Assembly: GCA_034434515.1 (NCBI GenBank)
Contig: DAOTZA010000043.1
Location: forward strand, 1,999-65,998
Source: Anaerolineales bacterium
Lineage (GTDB): Bacteria; Chloroflexota; Anaerolineae; Anaerolineales; UBA4823
DNA length: 64,000 nucleotides
Reading direction: 5' to 3'
Shown: positions 4,070-21,511 of the stretch, piece after piece
How positions within the stretch are numbered: the first letter of the stretch is position 1
How the letters are laid out: each line of letters starts with the position of its first letter
Translations under genes and position numbers: made by a program
The notes under the pieces: generated by a model
The model's database searches: none
Told to the model about the DNA's origin: nothing
What the model saw: only the letters and a program-made list of their open reading frames with translations

Positions 4070-4102
4070 ACGGAAAGCCCCGGAAGTAGGGGCTTTCCGT
4101 TT
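4068..4102. terminator. Bidirectional intrinsic terminator hairpin between convergent genes
   Basis: AAACGGAAAGCCCC (4068-4081), loop GGAAGTA, GGGGCTTTCCGTTT (4089-4102) form a 14-bp perfect stem flanked by A/T runs. It overlaps both stop codons. Confidence 0.6.
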
Positions 4103-4367
4103 ATCCACCTGCAATAGCAGGAATTAAGTGGATGACATCCCCATCTTTGGGCTGGTAATCTAACTCTACATTCTGGCGATTGACCACAATCAACGTTTGC
4201 TCTGGGTCAATCGCTAATCCTAGAGCCATCAACGCCTCTTCGATCGTCTGTCCCCGTTGCATTTGATATTGCAATGTGGTCACGCGGCCATTGGGAGTCT
4301 CAATCTGTAAGACAGTATGCAATTGAAAAGTCACCTCTAGTTTATTCACTTTCCAAAATCGACTCAA
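4101..4367 (-). CDS. MoaD/ThiS-family ubiquitin-like sulfur-carrier protein
   Basis: About 85 aa, ending ...HLIPAIAGG (C-terminal Gly-Gly). It overlaps the stop of the upstream AOR gene by 4 nt. The start is uncertain (TTG at 4367 or GTG at 4349). Confidence 0.65.
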   Translation of the reverse strand: MSRFWKVNKLEVTFQLHTVLQIETPNGRVTTLQYQMQRGQTIEEALMALGLAIDPEQTLIVVNRQNVELDYQPKDGDVIHLIPAIAGG

Positions 4368-6067
4368 AGCTGATCAAAAATATGATCCAGATCTTCCTCA
4401 GGCACATCAAAAACAGAATTGTTCGGCGGCAAGGGTTCATATTTCATAAACTCGGGCAGTCGGTCATCTGCAGCGGTAAATCCTGCTCGTCGGTTGAACT
4501 CTCGCTCTAACTTAATTGCCATCTTTCCCAACACTTGCAGGAAGTTTTCTGCCACGCCCCATCCGTACCGAGCTTCAATTAATTGCTTTATCGTCTCTGG
4601 GACACCCGCAAATCCATTGCCGGCGAAAACACAGGCACCAAGGGAGTCGTAACCCGCCATATTGATCTGGACGGTTTTCGAGACCTCAGCCTGCACCTTC
4701 GGATCGAGGTGGTCAATCTTTGCCCGAATGGTCAACCCCGCGGTATGATCCGCACCCTGGGGTGAAGTTGCGTACGTGACTCCGGTGCCCTTAATTGCCC
4801 GTGGTTCATAGGCGCTCATCGCCTGCCCTTTAACCACCGGCACTCGGCGGACATTAAATGCCCTGCCCGTAACCGCTGCGCCATTTCCTAACACCCTGCC
4901 TAATACTGTCCCCTGGCGAATTTCCTGAATTAGCTCCATAGCTCGATTGCTATCCCCAAATTCCATCAAGCCAGCTTCGGCTGCCACTCCCAAGGCAGCT
5001 CCGATGTCAATTGTATCCAAACCCAGATCGTTGATCTCGTAATTCATCCGAGCGATCATATCTAGATTGTCGATCCCAAGATTAGGGCCTAACAAACCAA
5101 CCGTTTCATATTCCAAAGGCGAAACGATGGATTTACCATTCTCATCCGCATAAACATTGGAACATCGGATAGTGCAGCCTGGCATACAGGCATGGGTAGT
5201 TTCGGCTTCGCCACCGCGTTGCAGAAGGAGCTCGCGCATCGTTTCGCCGCGGATCCGCTCCAATCCCTCGAAATGTCCGGCCGAAAAGTTGCGAGTTGGC
5301 ATTCCTCCAAATCCATCCGACATGCCAGGCATGGCATTCGTGCCGTAATCGGCATAAATTTTCGTCTGGGGGTGTTCCATCAAGGATTTTGTAAATCGCT
5401 TTTGAGCGGTCTTAAAGCTCTCCAAATCCTTAATTTCGGGTTTAACGCCATCTTTAGCATCAATTACAATCGCTTTGATTTGCTTAGAACCCATCACTGC
5501 GCCTAATCCTCCTCTGGCGGCAATGCGGGATGGCACTCGATCCTTATCAAGGTTTTGGATACCGGCTGCCAATTGTCGGCGCTCTCCGGCAGGGCCAATC
5601 AGCGCAATCGCGACATCTTTGCCATACCGTTCTAGTAACTTCTCGGCTGTAGCATACACTCCCAATCCAACCAGATCCTGCGCCGGTTCAAATTTCACCC
5701 CGTCCTTACTTAGGTAGAGAACCCACCAGCGGTCATCTTGCGGCACGTTTTCTAACAACAAGGTTTTGATTCCTAAATAAACCAGCTTCAAACCCGTTGT
5801 CCCTCCAGCATTCGATTCTTTTACGCCCCCTGTCAGAGGGCTTTTTCCTCCGAACGAGATGCGATCACAACTGGAAAGCATATGACCGACGAGCAAACCC
5901 GGTGCGAGTATCAGTTTATTAAAGGGGCCTAAAGGGTCACACAGCGGATTGACCTCATCCAACAGCGCGCGGGCGATCAACGCCCTTCCGCCTAACTGCT
6001 CCCACGTGGAAGGAACTTCTTCCCTGGCAAATGTCTGCTTTGTCGTATCAATTCTCCAAACATTCAT
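4364..6067 (-). CDS. Aldehyde:ferredoxin oxidoreductase family protein (tungsten/molybdopterin, AOR paralogue 1, 567 aa)
   Basis: AOR N-terminus (KLILAPGLLVG...GGKSPLTGG) and pterin motif DLGLDTIDIG. Cys cluster ACMPGCTIRC plus the distal Cys in LGACVFAG. RBS GGAGG precedes the ATG. Confidence 0.85.
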   Translation of the reverse strand: MNVWRIDTTKQTFAREEVPSTWEQLGGRALIARALLDEVNPLCDPLGPFNKLILAPGLLVGHMLSSCDRISFGGKSPLTGGVKESNAGGTTGLKLVYLGIKTLLLENVPQDDRWWVLYLSKDGVKFEPAQDLVGLGVYATAEKLLERYGKDVAIALIGPAGERRQLAAGIQNLDKDRVPSRIAARGGLGAVMGSKQIKAIVIDAKDGVKPEIKDLESFKTAQKRFTKSLMEHPQTKIYADYGTNAMPGMSDGFGGMPTRNFSAGHFEGLERIRGETMRELLLQRGGEAETTHACMPGCTIRCSNVYADENGKSIVSPLEYETVGLLGPNLGIDNLDMIARMNYEINDLGLDTIDIGAALGVAAEAGLMEFGDSNRAMELIQEIRQGTVLGRVLGNGAAVTGRAFNVRRVPVVKGQAMSAYEPRAIKGTGVTYATSPQGADHTAGLTIRAKIDHLDPKVQAEVSKTVQINMAGYDSLGACVFAGNGFAGVPETIKQLIEARYGWGVAENFLQVLGKMAIKLEREFNRRAGFTAADDRLPEFMKYEPLPPNNSVFDVPEEDLDHIFDQL

Positions 6068-6102
6068 TGAAAACCTCCGTGTTCTATTCTTAACTCAATA
6101 TT

Positions 6103-7362
6103 TTATCCCGAAAGTTTTGCTATGATAGAAGTCGCTTCAGGTAAAACAATCACCTTTGCATCTTTACCTAAGATGTCCAAAGCATGGTCAACAGCTTCTT
6201 GGACCGTTAAGAACGGTTGCCACCGGATTTGACGCACTATGCTGTCGTCAAAAGAAGAAACGCAAAAAATCCTTGCTTTCTGCTCAATCAGCGCTATGGC
6301 GGCCGCAATATGGCCTCCTTGCACAAATTTTTCCTGGATTCTCCGAATCGCCTCTTCTGGGGTTGGAATTTCCATCATCCATTGTTCCAGCACCGCGTTG
6401 CCAAAACCTTCCGTACATTCTGCAACCAGAATGATGATGCCGTTGTCGCAAACAAAATCCTTGGCAGATTGCAAAGCTTTGTTGGACTGTAATAAATTGA
6501 TATCTTTTGGATAACCTCCAGGACTGGCAATGACAATATTAGCCCGCCGGGAAATTTCGATGGCGCCGCGTTCGATCACAGCCCGACATCCAGCCCGATG
6601 AGCTTCGATCACATCCCCGGCAAATGCCGCTACAATGCGATGTTGGTGATCGACAATCACATTCAGAATAAAATCCACCCCCAACATCGCAACCCCTTCT
6701 TCCAAATCCTCCCGCACAGGGTTACCTTCAATCCTCATCGCCGCAGCTTCTGGAGAAACCATCCAGCGATGATTGGCATAAATGGTTTCTCGCGATGCAC
6801 AGCCAGGCAAAATTGCTTTTGCACCTCCTGAAAAGCCTGCAAAATAATGAAATTCGATGTTACCCAAACAAATACGCACATCGGCTTCGACAAGTGGACG
6901 GAAGATTTCAACCCTTGTGCCCCGGCTGGTTATCCCCAACGTTACAACATCGTCTGGATCATGGTTTATTGCCCGAATGCGTTGGAATATTTTTGGAGAA
7001 ATCGCCTTTTGCATCTCCTCTTCGCTCATTGGGCGATGAATTCCTAAGGCAAATACGACAAAGATATCTTCATCAGGTATTCCGGCAGCCTCCAATTCAC
7101 CAATCACAAAAGGCAACATTTTGTCTGAAGGCGTGGGTCTGGTTAAGTCACTGGTAACAATGGCAATATTTTGACCACGGCGAACAATCTCCCGTAAACG
7201 TGGGCTTCCAATTGGATTTTCCATTGCCTGCCGAAGCGTCTGGGTCTCATTAATTTCATCAACGATCGACTTGGGATAATAAATCCCCAGCAAATTTTGA
7301 CGCGGGATTTCCAGGCGGATTATTTCTCTGCCATACGGAAGCCAGACTTCTTCTCGTTCCAT
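6103..7362 (-). CDS. LarA-family nickel-pincer-cofactor-dependent 2-hydroxyacid racemase/epimerase homologue
   Basis: Motifs as I recall them from lactate racemase: SDLTRPTPS, GIHRPM, EFHYFAGFSGGAKAILPG (His plus tethering Lys), ANH. Length is 419 aa. Confidence 0.75.
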   Translation of the reverse strand: MEREEVWLPYGREIIRLEIPRQNLLGIYYPKSIVDEINETQTLRQAMENPIGSPRLREIVRRGQNIAIVTSDLTRPTPSDKMLPFVIGELEAAGIPDEDIFVVFALGIHRPMSEEEMQKAISPKIFQRIRAINHDPDDVVTLGITSRGTRVEIFRPLVEADVRICLGNIEFHYFAGFSGGAKAILPGCASRETIYANHRWMVSPEAAAMRIEGNPVREDLEEGVAMLGVDFILNVIVDHQHRIVAAFAGDVIEAHRAGCRAVIERGAIEISRRANIVIASPGGYPKDINLLQSNKALQSAKDFVCDNGIIILVAECTEGFGNAVLEQWMMEIPTPEEAIRRIQEKFVQGGHIAAAIALIEQKARIFCVSSFDDSIVRQIRWQPFLTVQEAVDHALDILGKDAKVIVLPEATSIIAKLSG

Positions 7363-7388
7363 CTCGTTTCAAGCTAGCATCTTCAGCA

Positions 7389-7426
7389 TACTGCCTTCTT
7401 TCCTCGGGATGGGAAAGAAGGCAGTA
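7389..7426 (-). repeat. 15-bp perfect hairpin in the 99-nt spacer between the gabT-like and larA-like genes
   Basis: TACTGCCTTCTTTCC (7389-7403), 8-nt loop, GGAAAGAAGGCAGTA (7412-7426). No U-run on either strand. CTCGTTT and AAACGAG flank it and could pair. Confidence 0.6.
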
Positions 7427-7461
7427 CGATTATAAACGAGCTAAACCTTTTTCATCATCGA

Positions 7462-8745
7462 TTACGAAAATTTAGGTATTACTTCTCTTAACGAATCGTG
7501 GAAAATTGAAAGTGCCAGGTCGATTTCTTCCTTTGACACAATCAATGGAGGTATCCAACGGATTGTATTGTCCCAGGTACCACAGGTCAAGAGCATTAAT
7601 TTTTTATCTAAGCAGGCATGCACAACATCTTTGGCAGTTTTCTTATCCGGTTTGCGATCCGAGGTTCGAAATTCAGAGCCGATCATTAAGCCGAGTCCGC
7701 GAACATCACCAATGACCGGGAACTCCTCCTGAAGATGTTGCAAGCCTCGTTTCAGTTGCGCGCCGCGTTCGACTGCGTTTTCGAGCATCTTTTCGCTCTT
7801 CATTGCTCGAATGGTTGCAACAGCCGCAGCCGCCGCCACGGCATTGCCTCCGTACGTTCCACCATGAGAGCCTGGTACCCATTTCTCCATCAGTTCTTTA
7901 CGACTGAAGACACCCGCCAATGGCATCCCGGAAGCCAAACCCTTTGCCACGGTCATAATGTCGGGAACAATATCAAAATGTTGAAAAGAGAACCATTTTC
8001 CGGTACGACCAAAACCCGCTTGGACTTCATCACAGATGAGCAAAATTCCATGCTGATCACAGATTTTGCGCAATCCCTGCATAAAACTCCTGGGCGGAAC
8101 GACATACCCTCCTTCGCCCAGGACAGGTTCGATCAAGATGGCAGCCGTTTCCTCAGGAGCCGTCTGACTGAGCAGCAGAAACTCTAACTCCTCAAGACAC
8201 CAGCGGCTGGTTGTTTCTTCATCCCATCCATAGCGATAGGCATAGGGGTAAGGAGCAACAAAAACACCCGCCATCAAGGGTTGATAGCCGACCCGATAAA
8301 TCGTCTTCGAAGCGGTTAAGGACATCGTTGCAATGGTGCGGCCATGAAAGCTACCTTGAAAAACGATGATGTTTGTTCGCTTGGTTGCGTGTCGGGCAAG
8401 CTTAATCGCCCCCTCAATCGCTTCGGCGCCTGAGTTTGTGAAGAAGAAACAATCGATTTGCTCTGGGACAATCGTCTGTAGCTCGTCAATTAACTCGATG
8501 ATAGGCTTGTGCTTCACCAGGTTCATTTGAGCATGGATGAACCTGGCGGCTTGTTCTTGTATCGCTTTAACAACCGCGGGATGGCAGTGTCCCGTGTTGG
8601 TGACTCCAATCCCGCAAGTGAAATCCAGGTATTTTTCTCCACTGATGTCATACACCCAACAACCTTCCGCCTTCTCCGAGACAATGTGGGTATAAGGCAT
8701 CCAGACGGGTGATAGATGGCTCAGGGTTTCTTCGTATCTATTCAT
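7462..8745 (-). CDS. gabT: Class-III PLP aminotransferase, 4-aminobutyrate aminotransferase-like
   Basis: Start at ATG 8745 with RBS AAGGAG; the ORF-track start at 8793 overlaps the upstream gene. Similar to GabT along its whole length (TNTGHCHP, FHGRT, EPVLGEGG, DEVQAGFGRTGK, GGTYGGN, GDVRGLGLM). Confidence 0.75.
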   Translation of the reverse strand: MNRYEETLSHLSPVWMPYTHIVSEKAEGCWVYDISGEKYLDFTCGIGVTNTGHCHPAVVKAIQEQAARFIHAQMNLVKHKPIIELIDELQTIVPEQIDCFFFTNSGAEAIEGAIKLARHATKRTNIIVFQGSFHGRTIATMSLTASKTIYRVGYQPLMAGVFVAPYPYAYRYGWDEETTSRWCLEELEFLLLSQTAPEETAAILIEPVLGEGGYVVPPRSFMQGLRKICDQHGILLICDEVQAGFGRTGKWFSFQHFDIVPDIMTVAKGLASGMPLAGVFSRKELMEKWVPGSHGGTYGGNAVAAAAAVATIRAMKSEKMLENAVERGAQLKRGLQHLQEEFPVIGDVRGLGLMIGSEFRTSDRKPDKKTAKDVVHACLDKKLMLLTCGTWDNTIRWIPPLIVSKEEIDLALSIFHDSLREVIPKFS

Positions 8746-8765
8746 TGATGTCTCCTTTTGTTTTG

Positions 8766-10676
8766 TTATAGACCAACAGCATCTGCTACCCATTCGATAC
8801 CCAAATCGACAAAGTTCGCTCGGGTGGGTAGACCATCTTGTGTCCAGCCCATGATCTGATAATACAGATCTAGAGCTTTTTCGAACTCATCCCTATCAAT
8901 CGCCACCCCTGCGGTCGGGCCGGTACCCACCAGTGGCTTGAAGAATTTGTTGGGCAAGGTATCATCTTTGCGGCTGAAGCCTTCGCGCAGATTGAAGGCT
9001 CGCATCATGTTGATCCGTCGCTCACCGACTTTCATCAACTCATACAGAGAAACATCCCACCCGGTAACCGCCTTTACCATATTCACTAATTCGGTAGGTC
9101 CATAAAGGGTCCAGGCAGGCCCCCATACAAACTGGCACAGCTCCAGGGTGTCCAAAATGCTATAGAAGATTTGACTATATGCTGCAAAGCGTACCTTTTC
9201 AGCGTTCAAACTACCTTCTGGTGGTGGATCCTTCAAATCCAATTCCGCCAGACGTTTCAAATACAGCTCACTGGTGCCGGCTTCATACATCGGGTCGTGT
9301 TCGCTAGATTGATGGTCTGCTCCGAAGGGATTGACGGCGTAGATCACCGCTAAGGACTTTTTCGCTTGTGGCATATGCGCCGGAGCTTCCTCGTTTTTCA
9401 CTGTGATGAGACATTCCTCAGCTTCCGGGCCCCAGATTTTAGCTGCCCGTGCCGACCCTTGCGAGAGAATTGGACCTAACGCGCCACTCACAGTAACAAT
9501 CTGACGCAACGCCTCCAACATCGCCTCAGCATTACCAAATTTCAATTCCAACCCACCAGTCTGTTCTTTACCAATGATGCCTTTCTCAAAGCATTCCATG
9601 GCGAAGGCGATAGTTGCCCCGCAGGTGATCGTATCCACCCCGTATTGATTGCATATCTCATTCGCCTTGCTGATAGCAACCAGATCACCAACCCCACAAT
9701 ACGACCCAAAGGTGCTAAGGGTCTCATACTCCGGTCCACCATACAGAGGATCGACTGTCAAGGGGCCTTCTTTTACTTCGACAACCCGTTTGCATCTTAC
9801 TACGCAAGCATAGCAGGTGTCGCGTTCCTTGAGGATCGTATCATACATGGTCTCCCCGCTGATCTGCTCACACAGTTCAAACTGCCCCTCGTTATAGTTG
9901 CGTGTCGGCAGAGTTCCCCAGGCATTTTGAGGCATAACAACGCTGGCAGTACCGTACTTCCCCAAACCGTCGACATCCGGGTTTTCCGGCATCCATTTTG
10001 GCCCCAATTTATTGATCTCAGCCAATTTTTTCGCATCAAAGATAGCCGGTTTTTGGGTGCCGCGCACTGCTATGGCTCGCAAATTCTTGCTTGCCATCAC
10101 CAGGCCCATCCCCGTGCGTCCATTGTTGCGATTGCTCATGCTCACCACGCTAGAGAAAAACACCCCGTTCTCGGCTGCCGGTCCAACCTGAAGCACCTCC
10201 GCCTTTGGTTCTCCCAATTCCTGCCGGATGATAGCTTCAGCCTCCCCGGTTAACTTGCCTACCAAATGAGAGGCATCGTGGATTTCTGCCTTGCCATTCA
10301 AAATCGAAAGATAGACCGGCTTTTCTGATCTGCCACGCACCACAATCCCATCAAAACCGGCAAATTTCAATTCGGCAGGGAAGAAACCACCTCCCTGACT
10401 ATCCCCGATGGCACCGCTCATGGGCGACTTGGCATTGATATTTACCCGACTCTGGCCCGAAATCGCAGCCCCGGTCGTCACACTCACCATAATAGTCAGG
10501 ACATTTTCAGGACCAAGTGGCTCTGCCTTTGGAGGCACATCTCTCAAAATGTAGTACATTCCCATCGCCGAACCGCCCATGTACTTGCGATAAAACGCTT
10601 CTGGGGGTTCTTCAACTTCGAGTTTACGCCGTGTCAGATCAACATGTAAGATTTTTCCGGTATATCCGTAAGGCAT
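8766..10676 (-). CDS. Aldehyde:ferredoxin oxidoreductase family protein (AOR paralogue 2, 636 aa)
   Basis: Start at ATG 10676 after AAGGAG. N-terminus MPYGYTGKILHVDLT. [4Fe-4S] motif CYACVVRC and pterin motif YGVDTITCG. Confidence 0.85.
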   Translation of the reverse strand: MPYGYTGKILHVDLTRRKLEVEEPPEAFYRKYMGGSAMGMYYILRDVPPKAEPLGPENVLTIMVSVTTGAAISGQSRVNINAKSPMSGAIGDSQGGGFFPAELKFAGFDGIVVRGRSEKPVYLSILNGKAEIHDASHLVGKLTGEAEAIIRQELGEPKAEVLQVGPAAENGVFFSSVVSMSNRNNGRTGMGLVMASKNLRAIAVRGTQKPAIFDAKKLAEINKLGPKWMPENPDVDGLGKYGTASVVMPQNAWGTLPTRNYNEGQFELCEQISGETMYDTILKERDTCYACVVRCKRVVEVKEGPLTVDPLYGGPEYETLSTFGSYCGVGDLVAISKANEICNQYGVDTITCGATIAFAMECFEKGIIGKEQTGGLELKFGNAEAMLEALRQIVTVSGALGPILSQGSARAAKIWGPEAEECLITVKNEEAPAHMPQAKKSLAVIYAVNPFGADHQSSEHDPMYEAGTSELYLKRLAELDLKDPPPEGSLNAEKVRFAAYSQIFYSILDTLELCQFVWGPAWTLYGPTELVNMVKAVTGWDVSLYELMKVGERRINMMRAFNLREGFSRKDDTLPNKFFKPLVGTGPTAGVAIDRDEFEKALDLYYQIMGWTQDGLPTRANFVDLGIEWVADAVGL

Positions 10677-10742: not shown

Positions 10743-12320
10743 TTATTCTTCAGCAGACAACCCCTTGAAACCAATTGCATTGGTCATGTCCACCGGATTT
10801 CCAAAAATATCGGTCAGCGATTTGGGTGGATCCATCTTCTGGGTCAGCAGGGATACAACAATGAAGAAAATCACAGACAGGATAAAAGCCGGAGTTGAGG
10901 CGATATAGATTGCATCCCATGTGGCGCACTCGACTTCGAGTTCACAGACTTCAAGGGTTTGCGGGTAGTAATAGAAAGTCAGGATGATCCACGAAATCAC
11001 TCCGCTAAAGAATGACGCCAGCGCGCCAGTATGGTTGGCTTTCTTCCAGTGCATCCCGATAATATACGGAGCTGCCATCCCAACCAGAATGCTTGTATTA
11101 CTCAAGACGGCCAGGCGATAAATCGTTGAAGCAAATAAAGCAATGATTAAGCTTAACAAGCCACTGACCAGCAAAGATAAACGCGTCAATAGTAACTCGG
11201 TCTTATCGCTGAGATTGGGCTTAAAAACTTTGATGATATTCTGGGTAAACATCGTCGCGCCGGCCAGCAAGGAACTATCCGAGGTACTCATTAAGGCTGA
11301 GGCAAGGGCGGCAATAAACGCCGCAGCCAACACTGGCGGCAAGAATTTCATTGCCATCGTGACTAATATGAATTCCGCCTCATCTGCTCCAATGTCCGAG
11401 CCAACAGCACCATAGGCAGCCATTCCAATCAAGGGCGACAAGATGCCAAAACCCAAATAAAGGGCAGCAGCCAGATAAGTGGATTGAACAGCCACTTTCT
11501 CATTTTGAGCAGCACAGGTGCGTTGCAAATAATCCTGTGCTGGAATAGCCCCTAAACCCAAGGCAATCCAGGCTGCCACATAATACAAGGCTCCCAATCC
11601 ACCCGTGTAACCAAGATACCCCTCGTCTTTTATTGGCCAGATAGCAAAAGGCTCAGAAACATACTGCGCCCCAGCCAGGCCAAAAAATTCCCGGACGCCT
11701 CCTACATGGCTGATGATCCCAATCGTAATCATCACCAGCCCAAAGGAGGTCAGGAACATCTGCATAAAGTCTAACGCTGTATCCGCCCACAACCCGCCAA
11801 GGAGGGTGTAGAAAGTAACCACAACCGCAACCATGATCATACCCGCTGAAAGCGGCCACCCCAGCAAGGCAGCCAGGATCGCTCCACCAGCCACAATTTG
11901 GGCTGCCGTCCATCCAAAATACGTGATAATCTGAGTCACCGTTCCAATCACCGACATTGCAGTTCCATATCGATGTTGGAAAAAATCCATGATCGTGATA
12001 TATTGAGCACGGCGGGCAATGCGGACAATCAAAAAGCCGGCGATAACCAAACACATTGTTGCCCCAAACGGATCAAAGACGACCCCTTGAAAGCCATACT
12101 GATAGGCGAAGGAGCTGGATCCCATCAGCGTCTCAGCCGCAAACCAGGTTGCCATGATTGACGGAGCAGCCATCCAAACCGGCAACCTTCTTCCCGCTAG
12201 CACATAGTCCACGTTTGTCTCCACCTTTTTTGACGCCCAATATCCAATGATCATGCGGATAATCAGAATAATCACAATTCCCCCAATGACAATACCCGCA
12301 TATTCGTATTCGCCGTTCAT
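10743..12320 (-). CDS. Sodium:solute symporter (SSS/SSF) family transporter, intact paralogue
   Basis: 525 aa and polytopic. SSS N-terminal signature (DYVLAGRRLP...ATWFAAETLMG). RBS AAGGAG. Confidence 0.8.
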   Translation of the reverse strand: MNGEYEYAGIVIGGIVIILIIRMIIGYWASKKVETNVDYVLAGRRLPVWMAAPSIMATWFAAETLMGSSSFAYQYGFQGVVFDPFGATMCLVIAGFLIVRIARRAQYITIMDFFQHRYGTAMSVIGTVTQIITYFGWTAAQIVAGGAILAALLGWPLSAGMIMVAVVVTFYTLLGGLWADTALDFMQMFLTSFGLVMITIGIISHVGGVREFFGLAGAQYVSEPFAIWPIKDEGYLGYTGGLGALYYVAAWIALGLGAIPAQDYLQRTCAAQNEKVAVQSTYLAAALYLGFGILSPLIGMAAYGAVGSDIGADEAEFILVTMAMKFLPPVLAAAFIAALASALMSTSDSSLLAGATMFTQNIIKVFKPNLSDKTELLLTRLSLLVSGLLSLIIALFASTIYRLAVLSNTSILVGMAAPYIIGMHWKKANHTGALASFFSGVISWIILTFYYYPQTLEVCELEVECATWDAIYIASTPAFILSVIFFIVVSLLTQKMDPPKSLTDIFGNPVDMTNAIGFKGLSAEE

Positions 12321-13659: not shown

Positions 13660-13671
13660 CCATGATTTTTC

Positions 13672-15033
13672 TTAATGAATGGTCTTGGCGACCTCGGCTA
13701 AGGTATCTGCAAGGCGATTCAAGACTTCGTCGATTTGTTCATATGTGATGACCAATGGAGGCTCAATGCGAATGGTATGCGCGCTGGTAAGCGTTCCGGC
13801 AACCAGGACCCCGCGCTTAAATAGGCCGGCTGCCACCTTATATCCGACTTCAGCATCATGGAAATGTTGACCAATTAACAACCCCTTACCGGTGATACTA
13901 TGGTAGATTTGCGGATACTTTGCAGCCAGTTCCTGCAATTTTGGCATAAGGTATTCACCCTTTGCTGCAGCTTGTTCCCACAACCGATCACGCAGAGTCA
14001 CGTGGATGGCAGCAATTGCTGCGCTACAAGCCAATGCGCCGCCACCGGTAGTCGTGGTATGAATAAACGGATTTGGGTACATCATGCACTGCCAGATTTC
14101 CTCGGTTGAGCAAAACGCGCTGACCGGCATCACACCTCCACCAAGCGACTTCGCCACCGAAAGGATATCTGGCACCACATTCCAGTGCTCAACTCCCCAC
14201 AACTTTCCGGTGCGCCCCATACCGGTTTGCACTTCATCCGCGATTAGCAATACTCCATAATGTTTCGTTAGCTCCCGGACGCGCGGCCAGAAATCATCGG
14301 GTGGAACGATGGCCCCTGCTTCTCCTTGAATAGGCTCAAAGAGAACCGCGGCAATATCAATCCCCACTTTTTTGCAGATATCCAGTTGTCGTTCCACGGC
14401 ATCTGCATCACCAAACGGCACATGATAAACCGGCCCGCCATAGAGAAGCCCTGGGGGTTGTCGATAATCGGCCTTACCCATCATGCTCAGTGAACCCATT
14501 GTTTTACCATGAAAAGCTTTTACCGCCACGATAAAGCCACTCTTCTTGGTATACATCTTTGCCAGTTTAATTGCTCCTTCAACGGCTTCCGTTCCGCTTG
14601 CGCAGAAGAAACTGTACTTAATATCACCAGGGGTTATCTGTGCCATTAAACGGGCAAGCACACCGCGCAACGGATCGATCAGCTCCTGACTGGGCATTGG
14701 CGTGCGATTTAACTGATTCCGCACCGCTTCCACTACTTCTGGATGCGCCCAGCCTAAATCAAACAACCCATAGCCGCCGAGGCAATCAATATACTCCCGA
14801 CCGAGGACATCGCGAAAAATCGCACCATTGCCCGTCCATTCGGTAGCCGCCCAATCGCCCGCTTCGGTGACCGATTTTCGATACTCAAGCCAGCCTTTAT
14901 TGAAATGCTCAGCAAAGTTATACAAACTCTCTTCTATGATTTGTTTCCCCTCTGCCTCATTTACTTCGCTTTTCGCGATGATTTCCAACCACTTGCTGGC
15001 ATATTCCTGGGCTTGATCTAAAGTTTGAGGCAT
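13672..15033 (-). CDS. patA: Class-III PLP aminotransferase, putrescine (diamine) aminotransferase-like
   Basis: ATG at 15033 after AAGGAG. It has the long N-terminal extension and motifs of the YgjG/PatA subgroup (FAEHFNKGWLEYRKSV, IDCLGGYG, KYSFFCASGTEAVEGAIKLAK, FEPIQGEAG, DEVQTGMGRTGK, AKSLGGGVMP, HTTTTGG, TIRIEPPL). Confidence 0.7.
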   Translation of the reverse strand: MPQTLDQAQEYASKWLEIIAKSEVNEAEGKQIIEESLYNFAEHFNKGWLEYRKSVTEAGDWAATEWTGNGAIFRDVLGREYIDCLGGYGLFDLGWAHPEVVEAVRNQLNRTPMPSQELIDPLRGVLARLMAQITPGDIKYSFFCASGTEAVEGAIKLAKMYTKKSGFIVAVKAFHGKTMGSLSMMGKADYRQPPGLLYGGPVYHVPFGDADAVERQLDICKKVGIDIAAVLFEPIQGEAGAIVPPDDFWPRVRELTKHYGVLLIADEVQTGMGRTGKLWGVEHWNVVPDILSVAKSLGGGVMPVSAFCSTEEIWQCMMYPNPFIHTTTTGGGALACSAAIAAIHVTLRDRLWEQAAAKGEYLMPKLQELAAKYPQIYHSITGKGLLIGQHFHDAEVGYKVAAGLFKRGVLVAGTLTSAHTIRIEPPLVITYEQIDEVLNRLADTLAEVAKTIH

Positions 15034-15059
15034 AATCAATCTCCTTTCTAAAATTTTGG

Positions 15060-16688
15060 TTAGTCTGCTGTGGCTGTGGATACTTCTGCTTCCTCCTCAG
15101 GTTTAACCCAAATAGCTTCTTTCAAAGAGAGTAATCCAAGTTGCAGTTTCAGTTCTAACGGATTCCCATCCACATCGGTCAACTGCATCGCTGGATCCGA
15201 TTTTTGGGTTGCCAAAGAAACGACCACCTGCAAAACAGCCGAAATAATGAATGCCGGGAATGAGCTGATATAGACGGCATCCCAGAAAGCGCATTCGAAA
15301 TCGGCTTCACAAATTGCGTAAGTCGATGTATGATAGTAAAAGATGCCTAAGACCACCCACGCGACGAATCCTCCCACCAACGCCGCTATTGCACCGGATT
15401 TATTTGCCTTTTTCCAATACATCCCAAAGGCAAAGGGTGCAAACAATCCAATCAGCAAAATTGACCAGGCGACCATCGCCAGTTTATAGATGGTACCCGC
15501 CCAAAGCGCAATGGCGATGCTGATAAAACCGATCACCAGAACCATGATGCGAGTTAGCAGCAATTTTTATTTTTCACCCATTTCTTTGACAAACAATGGC
15601 ACGATATTTTCGGTCACCACCGAAGCCCCGGCAAGCACTGAAGAGTCCGAAGTACTCATCAGTGCCGAAGCCAGCGCTGCAATAAATAGGGCAGTCAAAA
15701 CCGGATGTAAATGTTCCATGGCGGCTGTTACTAGCAAGAATTCAGTCTGTTCCGGGGCGATATTTGGATTTAGTTTGAACATCATGATCCCGATCAAAGG
15801 AGACATAACCCCAAACGTGAGATACAGCACCCCAGCAATATACGAACCCCACACCGAAGTTGCTTCATTCTTGGCTGCCATCGATCGTTGCATCAGGTCT
15901 TGGGTAGGCACACTCCCAAAGCCAATTGCTAACCAGGCGGCAATCCAATAAAAGATACCAATATAGCCAGTATAGCCCAAATACCCCTCGTCTTTAATCG
16001 GCAATAAGGTTAGGGGATCCGAGACATATAATGATCCGGCTCCTTCGACCATCCCGCGAAAACCACCTACGGCATTTAACACCCCAATGAAAATCAAGGT
16101 CACCCCACCAGCGGTCAAGAACATTTGCATAAAGTCCAGCAGGGTATCCGCCCACATTCCCCCCATGAAAGTATAGAATGTCACAATGGTCGCTACCAGA
16201 ATCATCCCGGTTGCAACCGGCCAGCCTAAGAGAGCATGAATGATATTTCCGCCCGCCACGATTTGCGCCCCCGTCCAGGCAAAATAGGTTGCCAACTGAG
16301 CCAGCGAAGTCAGGAAACTCATTTCCTTCCCAAAGCGCCGTTCAAAGAAGTCAACCACCGTTAGATACCTGGCTCGGCGCATTAGACGAATAAAAAACAA
16401 CCCGGAAATGAACAAACAGGCCGCCGCCCCAAAGGGATCAAACACCACACCTTGCAAGCCATACTGGTAGGCAGTAGAACTTGCCCCCATCATCGTCTCA
16501 GCGGCGAACCAGGTTGCCATGATGGAGGCTGAAGCAAGGTAGATCGGTAACCGCCGCCCGGCAACAATATAATCGGCTGAATTTTCAACCTTGCGAGAGG
16601 CATAATAGCCAACTGCCAAACGAATCAGAAACAAAAATACGATTCCCCCAATAACGAGTCCAGCATATTCGTAGCCTTGCATTTCCAT
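15060..16688 (-). pseudogene. SSS-family transporter paralogue interrupted by a single in-frame TAA (15564-15566)
   Basis: ORFs 15567-16688 (373 aa) and 15060-15563 (167 aa) are in the same frame. They align end to end with the intact 525-aa paralogue, with ...VKEMGEK*KLLLTR matching ...KPNLSDKTELLLTR. There is no other lesion. Confidence 0.65.
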
Positions 16689-16774
16689 TTCTATCCTCCA
16701 AACTTAGGGGTCTTCATCTTTTGCTAATCATTGCTGGAAGTAAAATTTTTCTTCTCTGCGTTCTCACCTCCTCT

Positions 16775-18247
16775 TTAGAACTTTCGCGTCCATTCTTTTG
16801 GCCAGCGCTCGATGACCACTTTCTTTTGGGTAAAGAATTCAACGGCATCCATACTTTGCCCATGCAGATCTCCAAAGAAACTTTCTTTCCACCCACTAAA
16901 GGGGAAGTAAGCCATCGGCGCTGCAACACCAATGTTGATACCCACATTGCCTGCCTGGACATGATAGCGGAATTTTCGCGCAGCTTCTCCGCTTTTCGTA
17001 AACAAACAAGCCATGTTGCCATAGTCCCCTAAATTGACCAAATCAATGGCTTCCTCGATGGTATTGACCGGCATGACGCTGAGGACAGGGCCAAAAATCT
17101 CGGTGCGGAACAATTCGCCTTGCGGAGGGATGTTCAGGATGACGGTTGGCTTGACAAAATTGCCCTTCTCATAGCCTTTGATCACAGCCCCCCGACCATC
17201 CACCAGAATCGTCGCGTCTTCCTCTTCCGCCTTACCAATCAATCCTTCGATGCGCGCCTTGCTTTGCGGCGTGATGACCGGCCCCATCTCTACTCCTTCA
17301 TCCAAGCCATACCCTACCACGCGACTGCGGGCGATCTCACAGATTGCCTCGATGAAATCACGCTTCACTTCACCAACCGGCGCGACAATCGAGGTCGCTA
17401 AGCAACGTTGCCCGGCGCTGCCAAAGGCGCTATCTGCCAGCACTTTCGTTGCTGTCTCCAGATCAGCATCCGGCAAGACAACCGAGATATTTTTTGCGCC
17501 ACCCTGACACTGAGCCCGTTTTCCATTGGCAGCTGCTCGCGAGTAGATATAACGCGCCACAGGCGTTGAGCCGACCATGCTGATTGCCCGGATCAAGGGG
17601 TGATCCAGAATGGCATCCACCGTCTCTTTTGCGCCATTTACCAGATTAATCACTCCCTTGGGAAATCCACATTGCTCCATGAGAGCAAAGATTTTTTGCA
17701 TTGTCAAGGGCACCTTTTCCGATGGCTTGACAATAACGGTGTTTCCACAAGCCAATGCATAGGGCATGAACCAGAAGGGGATCATGCCAGGGAAGTTAAA
17801 CGGACAGATAATTGCCACGACTCCCACCGGCTGGCGAATAAAATATTCATCAATGCCCGGCGCAATATCTTCTGAGAAAGCCCCCTGCAGTAAAGAAGGG
17901 ATACCACTGGCAACTTCCACGTTCTCAACCGCACGGCGCATCTCACCCCGCGCTTCGATAATCGTCTTCCCACACTCCATGGTAATCTGGCGCGAAAGCT
18001 CCTCAAAATGCGCTTCCAGCAAGTTTTTTAACTTAAAGAGACATTGAATCCGATCCCCTGCCGGCGTCTCTCTCCAAACCTTTAACGCCCTTTGGGCAGC
18101 CTGAGCAGCTTCATCCACCTCTTGGGGTGGCGACAAGGGCACTTCCCCTAATTTTTCTGCCGTAGCCGGGTTATAAACTCCCCATACTTCAGTCGCTTTT
18201 GACACTCTCCATTCACCATCAATGTAGTTACGCACTTGGACGACCAT
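16775..18247 (-). CDS. mmsA: CoA-acylating methylmalonate/malonate-semialdehyde dehydrogenase
   Basis: ATG at 18247 after AAGGAG. ALDH fold with catalytic Cys (GQRCLA) and the MMSDH-type C-terminus ([25 protein letters not shown]...FFTQKKVV). Confidence 0.8.
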
Positions 18248-18272
18248 TGCCAAACTCCTTCAGGTTTACGCA

Positions 18273-19598
18273 TTACGAAAGAGTCACGTTGTCTAAGACA
18301 TCCCGAATTATCCCTAATCCCTCGTCTAGTTGTCCTTTATTGATCATCAACGGTGGAATAACAAAGATCATCGTCCCCATTGCCGACGCCATCGTGTAGG
18401 TGAACAAACCGCGCTCCTTCAGGGCTGCTCCGATTTTTTGCATTAGCGGTATCGGTAAGGGCTTTTTGGTCGAGCGATCTTCGACAAGCTCTATGGTTGA
18501 GAATAAACCGATATAGCGCACATCCCCTACCATCGAATAACGGGCTTTGATCTGCTCCAATTGCTCTCCGAGATATTTGCCAAGCTCAAAGGCATTTTCA
18601 ATAAGATGCTCTTCCTGATAAACCTGAATGGTCGCCAAACCGGCTGCGCAGGCGAGTGGATGACCGCTGTACGTCAAACCGCACCAGAGCATTTTATCCT
18701 CAAAGAAGTCGGCGATCTTCTGACGCACCACGACAACACCCAGGGGAACATAACCTGACGTCACCCCTTTAGCGCTGGTGATCATATCGGGAACTACATT
18801 CCAGTTATCTACCGCAAACCACTTTCCCGTCCTCCCCCACCCGCTCATGACCTCGTCTGAGATCAATAAAATGTCATACTTGTCACAGATTTCTCGAATC
18901 CTCGGCCAGTAATCATCCGGTGGAACGATCAAACCATTTGAGCCAGTGACACCTTCCATGATAATTGCTGCAATCCGATCCGGCCCTTCATAGTGGATAA
19001 TCTCCTCAACATGCGAAATACATTCGCGATGGCAAGTCTCCCGCGTCCAGCCAAACGGGCAGCGATAACAATGAGGGTCAAGGAAATGAACGACTCCAGG
19101 AATACCCGGTTCAGCAGCCAAACGGCGTGGATCACCAGTCAGGGTGATTGCTCCATGTGTCGCGCCATGATAGGCACGATAGCGAGAGAGAATTTTCTGG
19201 CGGCCGGTGTAATGGCGAGCGATCTTAATCGCATTTTCATTTGCCTCTGCTCCGCCTAAGCAGAAGAAGGTCTTTTTAAGATCTCCAGGAGTTACTTCGG
19301 CTATTTTTTCACCCAAATCGCCGCGCGGTTTTGTGGCAAGACCAGGGTGGGCAAAACAAAGCGTTTCTGCTTGTTTTTTAATCGCCTCGATAACTTTAGG
19401 ATGTTGATGGCCGATATTCAGATTCATAAGTTGGGAAGAGAAATCCAAATAGCGCTTCCCATCCGCATCCCAAAAATACACCCCTTCAGCGCGCACAATC
19501 GGAATCGGTTGGACAGTGTTCTGGACTGACCAGGAGAAAAAGGTGTATTCCCGGTTTTTCGATACAATCGTTTGTGCTTCAGAATATTGAGTGCTCAC
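18273..19598 (-). CDS. Class-III PLP omega-aminotransferase (beta-alanine/taurine:pyruvate aminotransferase-like)
   Basis: GTG start after GGAGG. Motifs NIGHQHP, YHGAT, DEVMSGWGRTGKWFA, TSAKGVTSGYVPLG, TYSGHPLACAA. Confidence 0.7.
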   Translation of the reverse strand: MSTQYSEAQTIVSKNREYTFFSWSVQNTVQPIPIVRAEGVYFWDADGKRYLDFSSQLMNLNIGHQHPKVIEAIKKQAETLCFAHPGLATKPRGDLGEKIAEVTPGDLKKTFFCLGGAEANENAIKIARHYTGRQKILSRYRAYHGATHGAITLTGDPRRLAAEPGIPGVVHFLDPHCYRCPFGWTRETCHRECISHVEEIIHYEGPDRIAAIIMEGVTGSNGLIVPPDDYWPRIREICDKYDILLISDEVMSGWGRTGKWFAVDNWNVVPDMITSAKGVTSGYVPLGVVVVRQKIADFFEDKMLWCGLTYSGHPLACAAGLATIQVYQEEHLIENAFELGKYLGEQLEQIKARYSMVGDVRYIGLFSTIELVEDRSTKKPLPIPLMQKIGAALKERGLFTYTMASAMGTMIFVIPPLMINKGQLDEGLGIIRDVLDNVTLS

Positions 19599-19626
19599 AG
19601 TACCTCCGTAAGTGTTTATAACTGAT

Positions 19627-20925
19627 TTAGTGGGTGGTCTTAATGACCGTTTCCATCACTTCGAGCGTTCGATCGATAACCTCCTCAGTGTGCGAATAAC
19701 ATAAGAACCAGGGTTCACGGGGGTCATGGTCAGGCATCACGCCCCGCACAATGGCGGCTTCGACCAAACGAAGATAATAATCTTGATCGCTTTGACTGAA
19801 ACTTCGTTGATCGGTAACCTGCTCAACGCCAATAGCAAAAGAAAACATTGCCCCATATCCGTTTACACTTACCGGAATACCCTGGCTGGCAAAGAGTTCC
19901 CTAAGCCCTTGCTTCAAACGCTCCCCGCGCCGTTCAATCTCCTTGAGAACAGGTTTCGATTTAAGCGCCCTCAGTGTCGCATGAGCTGCTGCTACGCCGC
20001 ATTTGTTGTTGTTAAAAGTGCCTCCTTGAGCAACACCTCTGCCAATAATCGACATAACTTCGCGCTTCCCCCCAAAAGCAGCTAAGGGATACCCGTTTGC
20101 GAGCGCTTTGGCATATGTCGCCAGGTCAGGGTCAATTCTATAGAATTCCTGCGCCCCGCCGTTGGCTATGCGAAAGCCGGTTTTTACTTCGTCCAATATC
20201 ATCACACAGCCATATTCATTGCAGCGTTGTCGAATGTGATTCAGGAACCCCGGCAAGGGTTCAATGGCTGCACAATTCCCCATACATGGCTCGACGATTA
20301 CCCCTGCAATCTGCTCGCCATAACTTCGCATCATCTTATCAAAAACTTCAAAATCATTAAACGGCACCGTAATCACCAAATCTCCGATACAGCGAGGAAT
20401 ACCAGAGCTAGCCGGGATTGGAACCGGGCTGTTTCGATTTCCATAGGTTTCTGCCGGGCTATATGTGGACCAAAGGGTATAATCCTGAAACCCGTGGTAC
20501 ATCCCCTCAAATTTCAAAATTTTCTCTCGACCGGTGTATGCTCGCGCTACGCGGATAGCATGCATGGTTGCTTCAGTGCCAGAACAAGCAAAACGCACCA
20601 TTTCTATCGCCGGGCACATTTCAACCATCATTTCTGCCACTTCGATCTCCAATTCAATCGTCATGGCAGCCATTGTGCCGCGGCTGATCTCTTCCTTAAC
20701 GAAGTCATCGACCTCAGGGTAGGAGTGGCCTAAAATGATCGGCCCAAAACCCAGGCGATAATCAATATACTGATTTCCATCGACATCCCACAAATAACAT
20801 CCTTGGGCTTTTTGCAGATAAGGGGTAATTGCCTCCCCCCAATAACGAAAGTTTGAGTTAACCCCTAAAGGCAGGTAACGTTTTGCCCGTTCCTGCAACG
20901 CTTTGCTTTTCGGTAAATGGAGCAT
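19627..20925 (-). CDS. Glutamate-1-semialdehyde 2,1-aminomutase-family PLP enzyme (aminotransferase/aminomutase paralogue, probably not the haem-pathway HemL)
   Basis: RYLPLGVNSNFRYW, GFGPIILGH, FACSGTEATMHAIRVARAYTGR, DEVKTGFRIA, YAKALANGYP. The catabolic context argues against true hemL. Confidence 0.65.
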   Translation of the reverse strand: MLHLPKSKALQERAKRYLPLGVNSNFRYWGEAITPYLQKAQGCYLWDVDGNQYIDYRLGFGPIILGHSYPEVDDFVKEEISRGTMAAMTIELEIEVAEMMVEMCPAIEMVRFACSGTEATMHAIRVARAYTGREKILKFEGMYHGFQDYTLWSTYSPAETYGNRNSPVPIPASSGIPRCIGDLVITVPFNDFEVFDKMMRSYGEQIAGVIVEPCMGNCAAIEPLPGFLNHIRQRCNEYGCVMILDEVKTGFRIANGGAQEFYRIDPDLATYAKALANGYPLAAFGGKREVMSIIGRGVAQGGTFNNNKCGVAAAHATLRALKSKPVLKEIERRGERLKQGLRELFASQGIPVSVNGYGAMFSFAIGVEQVTDQRSFSQSDQDYYLRLVEAAIVRGVMPDHDPREPWFLCYSHTEEVIDRTLEVMETVIKTTH

Positions 20926-20950
20926 AGGATTCCCTCCAAGGTAAAATATT

Positions 20951-21436
20951 TTAGGTTATTGATTCGCTCTTTTCACAGACCTCTAAAGGGATTGACCACT
21001 GATAAACATCTTTCAATACGGATGGAACAATTGAAGTAACCGTCTTTCGAACACCGGGTGTCTTACCAATGACTTGGGTGACAAAACGATAAACCTCCTC
21101 ATTACTTCGCGCAATCAATTGCACGCTGACATCTGTTTCCCCAATCGCATAAGCCACATAACTCACGCAACTGTATTCTGTCATCTTGTGGGCAACTTCT
21201 TCAATGCAGTCCGACTCCACCTCCAGCATCACATCCGCAACAACTCCGTATCCCAGGCTCTTTGGATTGACAACCGCCCTGATTCGGATAATATCTCTTT
21301 CGATTAATTTTTCCAAGCGATAACGAGCAGATCGCTCGGAAATACCCAGCCTGCGAGCAATCTCACTACAGGTTAATCGCCCATCCTCAATTAACAAATC
21401 AACAATTTTTTTATCAGTAATGTCGATTTTATACAT
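20951..21436 (-). CDS. Lrp/AsnC-family transcriptional regulator
   Basis: MYKIDITDKKIVDLLIEDGRLTCSEIARRLGISERSARYRLEKL (HTH) plus a C-terminal RAM-like domain. It is the first gene of the co-directional cluster. The start at 21436 was chosen by family N-terminus; no SD is visible. Confidence 0.8.
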   Translation of the reverse strand: MYKIDITDKKIVDLLIEDGRLTCSEIARRLGISERSARYRLEKLIERDIIRIRAVVNPKSLGYGVVADVMLEVESDCIEEVAHKMTEYSCVSYVAYAIGETDVSVQLIARSNEEVYRFVTQVIGKTPGVRKTVTSIVPSVLKDVYQWSIPLEVCEKSESIT

Positions 21437-21461
21437 GAATTTGGAAAATATTGTAGGTTTA

Positions 21462-21511
21462 TGACAAATATCATAATGCTTAAAACACAAAATTTCAAGT
21501 GACAAATGTCA
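21462..21511 (-). promoter_or_regulatory. Candidate sigma70-type promoter bracketed by two copies of a 12-bp palindrome (candidate Lrp-type operator)
   Basis: On the minus strand: -35 TTGAAA (21493-21498), 17-nt spacer, -10 TATGAT (21470-21475). Palindromes are TGACAAATGTCA (21500-21511, perfect) and TGACAAATATCA (21462-21473, one mismatch), with centres 38 bp apart. Confidence 0.4.

Follow-up and report, generated by a model that had tools for sequence, protein, structure and literature searches.

The 64,000-nucleotide stretch of DNA analysed here (hereafter the window, in whose coordinates all positions are given) belongs to contig DAOTZA010000043.1 of a hot-spring Anaerolineales bacterium and carries on its minus strand 13 successive open reading frames between 4101 and 21505. 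They form an array of about 17 kb that runs from the start of an Lrp/AsnC-family regulator gene at 21436 down to a terminator hairpin at 4064-4106 and encodes aminotransferases, a saccharopine-dehydrogenase (SDH)-fold protein (SDHL), sodium:solute symporters (SSS) and two members of the aldehyde:ferredoxin oxidoreductase (AOR) family. A preliminary description had read these 13 genes as an amine-catabolic cluster; all were recovered as open reading frames, and every family label was reproduced by Pfam and NCBIfam, some with the qualifications given below. From the comparisons that follow, we consider it rather probable that the array works as a single conserved operon suited to life without oxygen, through which polyamines taken up from outside, and the omega-amino acids formed from them, are catabolised. 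Its features are listed here from the first gene to the last, followed by the putative signals and by one gene just outside the cluster.

20951..21436, minus: Lrp/AsnC-family regulator, 161 aa, first gene (ATG at 21436); Pfam HTH_AsnC-type and AsnC_trans_reg
19627..20925, minus: HemL-fold class-III aminotransferase, GntE-type amine/aldehyde transaminase; NCBIfam NF041362, 635 bits (cutoff 525)
18273..19598, minus: omega-aminotransferase, PRK06062 subfamily; NF004718, 551.5 bits (cutoff 472)
16775..18253, minus: CoA-acylating (methyl)malonate-semialdehyde dehydrogenase (MMSDH); TIGR01722, 541.5 bits (cutoff 448.5)
15060..16688, minus: sodium:solute symporter SSS1, split into two parts; each half matches Pfam SSF
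13672..15039, minus: PatA/YgjG-type putrescine (diamine) aminotransferase; NF008570, 615.6 bits (cutoff 612)
12360..13565, minus: SDHL, the saccharopine-dehydrogenase-fold core protein; Pfam Sacchrp_dh_NADP (PF03435) and Sacchrp_dh_C (PF16653)
10743..12320, minus: intact sodium:solute symporter SSS2; TIGR00813, 184.5 bits (cutoff 184)
8766..10676, minus: AOR1, AOR family, 636 aa; Pfam AFOR_N and AFOR_C
7462..8745, minus: GabT/PuuE-like 4-aminobutyrate-type aminotransferase, 427 aa; NF005993 (PRK08117), 577.7 bits (cutoff 574)
6103..7362, minus: LarA-family nickel-pincer 2-hydroxyacid racemase homologue; Pfam Lar_N and LarA_C
4364..6067, minus: AOR2, short AOR-family protein, 567 aa; Pfam AFOR_N and AFOR_C
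4101..4367, minus: MoaD/ThiS-like small protein; Pfam ThiS PF02597, 35.7 bits (cutoff 22.5); C-terminus ...IPAIAGG
21470..21498, minus: promoter-like site TTGAAA-17-TATGAT upstream of the regulator gene; consensus scan, 10/12 matches, a consensus match only
4064..4106, no strand assigned: likely terminator; GC-rich hairpin with a stem of 18 bp (9 G-C pairs) where the MoaD-like and GH113-like genes converge, from a terminator scan
24157-26001, minus: AOR3, third AOR-family gene, 614 aa, just outside the cluster; AFOR_N and AFOR_C, closest to Pyrococcus furiosus AOR

The genes are separated by gaps of 19-106 nt (with gene starts as called on identical public contigs). The 4-nt overlap that the preliminary description also reported stands at the AOR2/MoaD junction (TTGA) only if the TTG at 4367 is the start codon; with the GTG at 4349, the two genes are 14 nt apart instead. 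No regulatory RNA was found inside the cluster by an Rfam scan.

SDHL, the AORs and their partner enzymes

SDHL had been labelled carboxy(nor)spermidine-dehydrogenase-like. The fold and family of this label hold, but the protein scores 207.9 bits against NF043000, the equivalog for carboxyspermidine and carboxynorspermidine dehydrogenases (CASDH/CANSDH; carboxynorspermidine synthase), far below its cutoff of 800. At E<0.01, its only relatives in the PDB are 4INA, 4RL6, 8DEB (Bacteroides fragilis CASDH) and 8H4Z (the carboxyaminopropylagmatine dehydrogenase, CAPADH, of Synechocystis); neither a lysine dehydrogenase nor a saccharopine reductase structure came up in that search. SDHL of the window is 27-34% identical to these four relatives (23-34% for its clade), the four are 57-70% identical among themselves, and the members of the SDHL clade share at least 49%. 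On these comparisons, SDHL is placed in a new clade of its own within the CASDH/CANSDH/CAPADH superfamily. When the residues mutagenised in CAPADH (PMC10599626) are mapped onto it, the catalytic D173, E196, H238, E239 and T353 are kept (D165, E187, H227, E228 and T343 in CAPADH; 84 clade members compared), and the clade carries its own signatures, M104 in place of Asn, E147 in place of Asp and Q352 in place of Thr.

The coenzyme site differs. In B. fragilis CASDH, which does not use NADH, S34, R35 and T36 contact the 2'-phosphate of NADPH (PMC10413350). All four solved relatives and the Sinorhizobium meliloti CASDH have Ser-Arg at this site; SDHL has D32-Y33-N34, and Asp-Tyr followed by Asn or Asp is found in 82 of the 84 clade members. 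An acidic residue at the 2'-phosphate position is the classical NAD+ signature, so the Asp-Tyr site would suit an oxidative, catabolic enzyme. The obligatory decarboxylase partner of CASDH in biosynthesis, nspC (CASDC), gave no tblastn match in the 64-kb window with the S. meliloti protein as query, and among about 90 SDHL loci there was a single match, at 22% identity; as a control, S. meliloti nspC adjoins its CASDH gene (L098; related loci are numbered with an L throughout). All characterised family members are biosynthetic and work in the reductive-condensation direction (PMC11999265, PMC10599626). For SDHL, we infer an NAD+-linked, oxygen-independent dehydrogenase that would run the CASDH chemistry backwards, releasing an aminoaldehyde from a polyamine.

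Both AORs of the cluster, as well as AOR3, show the domain architecture, the [4Fe-4S] cysteines and the active-site Glu/His motifs of the family, with C291, C295, C514, E316-Y-E-T and H455 invariant (AOR1 numbering), and their best PDB matches are true AORs (1AOR, 9MQX and the Aromatoleum aromaticum enzyme 8C0Z). AOR1, with the motifs CxxCxxxC...C, EYET and GADH, is nearest to P. furiosus AOR (1AOR, 2e-106). AOR2, nearest to 9MQX (3e-73), spaces its cysteines in a variant way, as C-x3-C-x3-C, and is shorter by some 40 residues at the C-terminus, both of which it has in common with its orthologue in L042; AOR2 orthologues of 62-67% identity were found in 16 loci. No AorA or AorC partner genes accompany these AORs, no tungstate-transport gene is present in the 64-kb window, and a polyferredoxin gene adjoins the AOR only in the clostridium Anoxynatronum (L073). 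The MoaD-like product of the last gene combines a ThiS-family domain with the C-terminal Gly-Gly of sulfur carriers, and similar genes follow AOR2 in L012 and L016; it is probably a maturation factor of the tungsten cofactor. MoaD-like genes (aorD and aorE) in the aor operon of A. aromaticum encode putative maturation factors (PMC6365974). As had been proposed, no NAD(P)-dependent aldehyde dehydrogenase of PatD or GabD type accompanies the AORs: throughout the cluster and the rest of the 64-kb window, the CoA-acylating MMSDH is the sole member of the Aldedh family.

The aminotransferases can be assigned with varying precision. The presence of PatA-like and GabT-like genes was borne out. The PatA-type protein passes NF008570 and stays below the cutoff of TIGR03372 (500.8 against 658.65); its orthologues, 70-86% identical, lie directly upstream of potABCD in related clusters. 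The GabT-like protein passes the PRK08117 subfamily model and reaches none of the GabT equivalog cutoffs; its nearest solved structures are Escherichia coli GabT (1SF2) and PuuE (6WJ8), at about 1e-95, and its orthologues (60-75% identity) follow AOR1, or a triplet of aldehyde dehydrogenases (ALDHs), in related clusters. The PRK06062 omega-aminotransferase is nearest to a taurine:2-oxoglutarate aminotransferase (6JIX, 1e-116), with further matches to a polyamine:pyruvate transaminase (9J4Z, 3e-73) and to putrescine transaminases. Its gene adjoins that of MMSDH, which passes its subfamily model, as expected of a beta-alanine/beta-aminoisobutyrate module. The two genes are neighbours in at least 16 loci, and MMSDH orthologues in related clusters are 60-72% identical. 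We rejected taurine degradation as the function of the omega-aminotransferase, since no sulfoacetaldehyde-processing enzyme is present and the kept partner is MMSDH; the same two facts favour beta-alanine as the substrate.

The remaining aminotransferase had been described as resembling a glutamate-1-semialdehyde (GSA) aminomutase. Its HemL fold agrees with this, and among solved structures it comes closest to GSA aminomutases (about 1e-89), but the hemL equivalog is not reached (416 against 527) and its top score is for a GntE-type transaminase. Orthologues of 51-68% identity stand in the same aminotransferase-aminotransferase-MMSDH block of other Anaerolineales. The NCBIfam name of the model that it passes is guanitoxin biosynthesis transaminase GntE; given the catabolic context, this name is almost certainly an over-annotation.

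Recurrence of the cluster and exchange of AORs for aldehyde dehydrogenases

A search seeded with a five-sequence alignment of SDH-like proteins, with one genome per species (GTDB), returned at least 592 loci, of which the best 80 were analysed. These loci were annotated by blastp and tblastn with window or reference proteins, and GC3-filtered open reading frames were used for the high-GC Actinomycetota. The cluster recurs in more than 20 species of Anaerolineales, where SDHL is 70-86% identical to that of the window. The recurrent order is GntE-like aminotransferase, PRK06062 aminotransferase, MMSDH, PatA, PotABCD, AsnC regulator and SDHL, followed by an optional permease, AOR1, the GabT-like aminotransferase, a PRK07046 HemL-like aminotransferase and AOR2. 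A polyamine ABC importer of PotABCD type is usually included: the polyamine subfamily model TIGR01187 is passed by PotA (384 bits, cutoff 355.6), and the remaining subunits match PotB, PotC and PotD best. Because this order is kept across so many species, the arrangement is not a matter of chance. The window cluster is therefore one variant of a widespread operon, in which symporters stand for PotABCD and LarA for the PRK07046 aminotransferase. The conservation of the neighbourhood, which the preliminary description had left to be checked, is thus established, and its interpretation is supported by this independent comparative evidence.

The core of the system, judged by what the loci have in common, is SDHL with a transporter and an AOR. 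The smallest version (L007) comprises an AsnC regulator, SDHL, an APC-family permease and an AOR. In the anaerobic clostridium Anoxynatronum, SDHL is accompanied by a 4Fe-4S polyferredoxin, an AOR, a symporter and an arginase-family gene, and in a Mycobacterium ulcerans record by an aminotransferase, an Lrp/AsnC regulator and a gene that RefSeq names gamma-aminobutyraldehyde dehydrogenase. Because of these three contexts (minimal clusters with an AOR, Anoxynatronum and the mycobacterial neighbour), the product of SDHL is probably an aminoaldehyde.

The most telling variation lies in the slot between SDHL and the GabT-like aminotransferase. In L030 and L037, this slot holds three tandem ALDHs and no AOR; L049 starts the same way, although its locus sequence is incomplete. 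The preliminary claim that AORs sit in place of NAD-dependent aldehyde dehydrogenases thus finds its counterpart in related clusters. Two of the three L037 ALDHs (L037 being the locus scored) pass the aminobutyraldehyde-dehydrogenase model PRK13473 (682 and 697 bits, cutoff 615), and the third is a different ALDH; by tblastn, the three ALDHs of L030 are 87-91% identical to those of L037. Three is also the number of aldehyde oxidations that a spermidine/putrescine route needs. For the loci with at least 5 kb of sequence downstream of SDHL, and with AORs counted on the same strand, the distribution is as follows.

Chloroflexota, 33 loci: AOR 24; ALDHs instead 2; both 0; neither 7
Actinomycetota, 26 loci: AOR 0; ALDHs instead 5; both 0; neither 21

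AORs and ALDHs are therefore mutually exclusive. In the five Actinomycetota loci, the ALDHs are PatD-like and are usually accompanied by Pot-like transporters and an AsnC regulator. This pattern is as expected if the product of SDHL is handled in the same way by an AOR or by a PatD-type ALDH, and the AOR would then be the anaerobes' version of the PatD-type step. The swap within otherwise orthologous operons offers a clean case of non-orthologous displacement.

Other parts of the cluster are less constant. Orthologues of the Lrp/AsnC regulator (51-60% identity) head the cluster in L007, L008, L012, L018, L024, L027, L028 and L040. The slot after SDHL is taken in other genomes by an orthologue of SSS2 or by an APC-family permease. 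SSS2, which is 55% identical to SSS1, fails the PutP and PanF equivalogs. The interruption of SSS1 noted in the preliminary description comes down to one nonsense codon, a single C->T change (CAA->TAA) at gene nucleotide 1120, window positions 15567-15569. Among near-identical contigs from hot-spring metagenomes, the codon is TAA in the window, L001 and L004, and CAA, with an intact gene of 542 aa, in four of the six contigs (L002, L003, L005 and L006); it is a strain-level polymorphism. The LarA-like protein is borderline for the malate racemase LarAH6 (NF052593, 505.4 bits against a cutoff of 500). No LarA homologue was detected by blastp or tblastn with the window proteins in the related loci searched, most of which have the PRK07046 HemL-like aminotransferase in that slot, and larB, larC and larE are missing from the Pfam lists for the 64-kb window. 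LarA is, by this comparison, a lineage-specific insert outside the conserved system.

In three species, a toxin-antitoxin-like pair (ribbon-helix-helix antitoxin and PIN toxin, recognised by sequence features only) appears to be inserted directly upstream of AOR2 (L036 16283-17003, L039 11540-12279 and L044 15918-16659). No ferredoxin was recognised among the small open reading frames before AOR2 in sister loci; by sequence features, these resemble toxin-antitoxin pairs, apart from one Cys-rich protein of an unknown family.

Tandem second copies of SDHL, 56-58% identical, occur in three Chloroflexota loci (L019, L044 and L068), and in L064 (Spirochaetales) a 28%-identical paralogue adjoins SDHL, with an EamA transporter and an ALDH also there; such copies suggest substrate diversification. 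In L009, L073/L074 and L089, SDHL has an arginase/agmatinase-family gene as a neighbour, with an ALDH or an AOR also present, which hints that some members of the clade act on guanidino-polyamines such as aminopropylagmatine. In L092, a relative 48% identical to SDHL (P0134) adjoins genes for an MttB-family methyltransferase and a lysine-2,3-aminomutase-like radical SAM protein. The context of the distant relatives P0127 and P0145 consists only of short contigs or transposases. Of the actinomycete copies, about 60% identical (L065-L083 and L096; Streptomyces, Nonomuraea), most stand alone next to a divergently oriented gene for a TetR-family regulator; large linear plasmids carry some of them, and only a minority lies beside Pot-like transporters and PatD-like ALDHs.

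Of additional note, AOR3 brings the number of AORs within 22 kb to three; its gene overlaps by 4 nt that of a bifunctional YjeF/Nnr NAD(P)HX epimerase-dehydratase (22601-24160, minus strand). Elsewhere in the window, Rfam matched a 6S RNA (43933-44107, minus), a glycine riboswitch (52586-52687, plus) and a tRNA (26243-26314, plus), the riboswitch being directly upstream of gcvH and two gcvP genes.

A proposed anaerobic polyamine route and its alternatives

Based on these comparisons, we propose that the probable function of the operon is the uptake and breakdown of polyamines, with succinate and acetyl-CoA as end products. The substrates would enter through the SSS symporters or, in most relatives, through PotABCD or an APC permease. 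SDHL, with NAD+, would cleave the secondary-amine C-N bond of spermidine or norspermidine to give a diamine and 3-aminopropanal or 4-aminobutanal, and the PatA-type aminotransferase would convert putrescine to 4-aminobutanal. AOR1 would then oxidise these aminoaldehydes to beta-alanine and gamma-aminobutyrate (GABA), reducing ferredoxin in a very exergonic step that could pull the unfavourable dehydrogenation. From GABA, the GabT-like aminotransferase would make succinate semialdehyde, which AOR2 would oxidise to succinate, while the omega-aminotransferase and MMSDH would turn beta-alanine, by way of malonate semialdehyde, into acetyl-CoA. For the HemL-fold aminotransferase, the probable substrate is 1,3-diaminopropane or some other amine. 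The MoaD-like protein may mature the tungsten cofactor, and the Lrp/AsnC protein may regulate the operon. This division of labour, with AOR1 acting on the products of SDHL and PatA and AOR2 on that of the GabT-like enzyme, is suggested by gene order. The potential of the acid/aldehyde couple is about -0.5 to -0.6 V (PMC6365974). Since this is very low, the AOR steps would be irreversible and could reduce ferredoxin, and so pull the dehydrogenation upstream of them.

More tentatively, we suggest that SDHL founds a new class, that of NAD+-dependent, O2-independent dehydrogenases cleaving the C-N bond of polyamines, and that in anaerobes the enzyme is pulled thermodynamically by tungsten AORs, which would save the reducing power of the aldehyde as reduced ferredoxin, the two together being the first described anaerobic route for triamines; we hold this to be possible rather than probable.

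Several observations weigh against the scheme. The transporters of the window are not of Pot type but SSS symporters, with only a distant relationship to PutP and PanF; the scheme can do without LarA and two of the four aminotransferases; and no ferredoxin gene was found in the cluster or the 64-kb window. Neither an AOR nor an ALDH is near SDHL in 7 of the 33 Chloroflexota loci, and most Streptomyces copies stand alone beside a TetR regulator, where the context is uninformative. Finally, D165 and H227 of CAPADH, the proposed holders of the alpha-amino and carboxylate groups of aspartate semialdehyde, are kept in SDHL as D173 and H238, because of which a carboxylated substrate is conceivable; these conserved pocket residues may also be catalytic.

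The alternative closest to our proposal keeps the diamine/omega-amino-acid operon with its AORs and makes SDHL a deaminating primary-amine dehydrogenase, similar to lysine 6-dehydrogenase, that would convert putrescine or cadaverine directly to an aminoaldehyde and ammonia, with no triamine cleavage. Lysine 6-dehydrogenase is in the same Pfam family (PMC10599626), the predicted NAD-type coenzyme site fits any oxidative role, and the minimal AsnC/SDHL/permease/AOR clusters, with or without the GabT-like gene, fit a path from diamine through aminoaldehyde to omega-amino acid. However, the sole PDB relatives at E<0.01 are reductive-condensation enzymes of CASDH/CAPADH type, such an SDHL would duplicate the PatA aminotransferase encoded beside it in most clusters, and the PotD-like binding proteins score nearer to spermidine-type PotD than to putrescine-type PotF; we thus regard a deaminating SDHL as unlikely, yet as a serious alternative. 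It is somewhat less likely still that the array is a patchwork of independent modules with only their strand in common (beta-alanine; putrescine; SDH-like/AOR; LarA/AOR), with the AORs serving in broad aldehyde detoxification. AORs are of broad specificity, with a proposed detoxification role (PMC6365974), a third one lies nearby in another context, and the module content varies, with LarA found only here, transporters swapped and toxin-antitoxin pairs placed before AOR2 in three loci. A patchwork does not readily explain why more than 20 species keep the modules side by side in one order, nor why PatD-type ALDHs replace the AORs in the same slot, which implies a pathway role; the short intergenic gaps and the single strong terminator at the end also suggest one or few transcripts.

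The SDHL/AOR/aminotransferase core could also degrade a basic amino acid, taking lysine through aminoadipate semialdehyde and 2-aminoadipate to 2-oxoadipate. Permeases of APC and SSS type and Lrp/AsnC regulators are typical of amino-acid systems, the GabT-like protein matches a 2-aminoadipate transaminase model (361 bits, against a cutoff of 650), and the 48%-identical SDHL relative has its lysine-2,3-aminomutase-like neighbour. Nevertheless, importers of PotABCD type and PatA-type aminotransferases belong to the conserved cluster, the ALDHs scored in L037 are of the aminobutyraldehyde-dehydrogenase and not the piperideine-6-carboxylate type, and the mycobacterial neighbour carries the corresponding RefSeq name, so lysine as the substrate seems to us quite improbable. 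Least probable by far is a biosynthetic direction, in which an AOR would reduce beta-alanine or GABA and SDHL would condense the aminoaldehyde with a diamine to spermidine or homospermidine, with neither aspartate semialdehyde nor decarboxylated S-adenosylmethionine. It is true that AORs can reduce acids when given strong reductants and that every characterised homologue of SDHL works in the reductive-condensation direction (PMC11999265, PMC10599626). But the coenzyme site looks NAD-type and not NADPH-type, the cluster has importers and a decarboxylating MMSDH, and sister clusters replace the AORs by non-acylating NAD(P) ALDHs. We take such ALDHs to run only from aldehyde to acid under physiological conditions.

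If the catabolic polyamine operon that we propose is correct, it would bear on a step that is poorly covered so far. Polyamines are abundant and nitrogen-rich in microbial mats, sludge, sediments and guts. The ways of cleaving spermidine known to us are O2-dependent oxidases, flavin or haem dehydrogenases and gamma-glutamylation, and to our knowledge the degradation of triamines by strict anaerobes is essentially undescribed. The cluster would supply a concrete route, with SDHL as a candidate for the cleavage enzyme that has been missing. Tungsten AORs would gain a defined physiological role in the oxidation of amino- and carboxy-aldehydes; for those of Anaerolineae, the assignments made so far are vague and go no further than "aldehydes from amino-acid oxidation". 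The proposed class of dehydrogenases would extend to hundreds of genomes across Chloroflexota, Actinomycetota, Clostridia and Spirochaetes, and the clade includes members in Streptomyces and Mycobacterium, where genetics is practical.

Comparison with known systems

The literature on AORs with polyamines or aminobutyraldehyde, and on saccharopine-dehydrogenase-like enzymes in polyamine catabolism, gave no description of such a system, in agreement with the earlier view that the cluster is uncharacterised as a unit; papers on Anaerolineae mention AORs only generically. What appears new here, and is supported by the comparisons above, is a transaminase-type polyamine catabolism that uses AORs and an uncharacterised SDH-fold enzyme. 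The closest known pathway is the putrescine transaminase pathway of E. coli (PatA/YgjG, PatD/YdcW, GabT/PuuE and GabD), in which a diamine is likewise converted through an aminoaldehyde, an omega-amino acid and a semialdehyde to succinate. The PatA-type protein of the window passes the equivalog model, and the other aminotransferase is nearest to GabT/PuuE. Unlike that pathway, the window cluster has no PatD or GabD and would use two AOR-family enzymes at those steps; it also adds SDHL and a branch for beta-alanine through MMSDH, all in one operon with transporters and an Lrp/AsnC regulator.

With the CASDH/CANSDH/CAPADH enzymes (8DEB, 4RL6, 4INA and 8H4Z), SDHL has in common the fold, the domain pair and the catalytic residues. 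It differs from them in having Asp-Tyr for Ser-Arg, and M104, E147 and Q352 for Asn, Asp and Thr, in the lack of a decarboxylase partner and in its catabolic context.

For the use of an AOR, there is a precedent in A. aromaticum, where the enzyme can replace phenylacetaldehyde dehydrogenase in anaerobic phenylalanine degradation (PMC6365974). There too, a tungsten AOR can take the place of an NAD-dependent aldehyde dehydrogenase, and MoaD-like genes belong to the operon. That enzyme, however, is a heterohexamer (AorABC) that includes a polyferredoxin subunit and one with FAD, and it reduces NAD+ as well, whereas the AORs of the window, which lack AorA and AorC, are most like the single-subunit archaeal AOR and presumably act on amino- and carboxy-aldehydes.

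In Pseudomonas aeruginosa, the flavin/haem enzyme SpdH cleaves spermidine to a diamine and an aminoaldehyde, and the aldehyde steps are carried out by NAD(P) ALDHs; bauABCD, with an omega-aminotransferase and an MmsA-type dehydrogenase, converts beta-alanine through malonate semialdehyde to acetyl-CoA. The products of spermidine cleavage and the beta-alanine route would be the same as those proposed here. The difference would lie in the enzymes: in the Anaerolineales operon, the cleavage would fall to an NAD-linked SDH-fold protein unrelated to SpdH, and the aldehyde steps to AORs.

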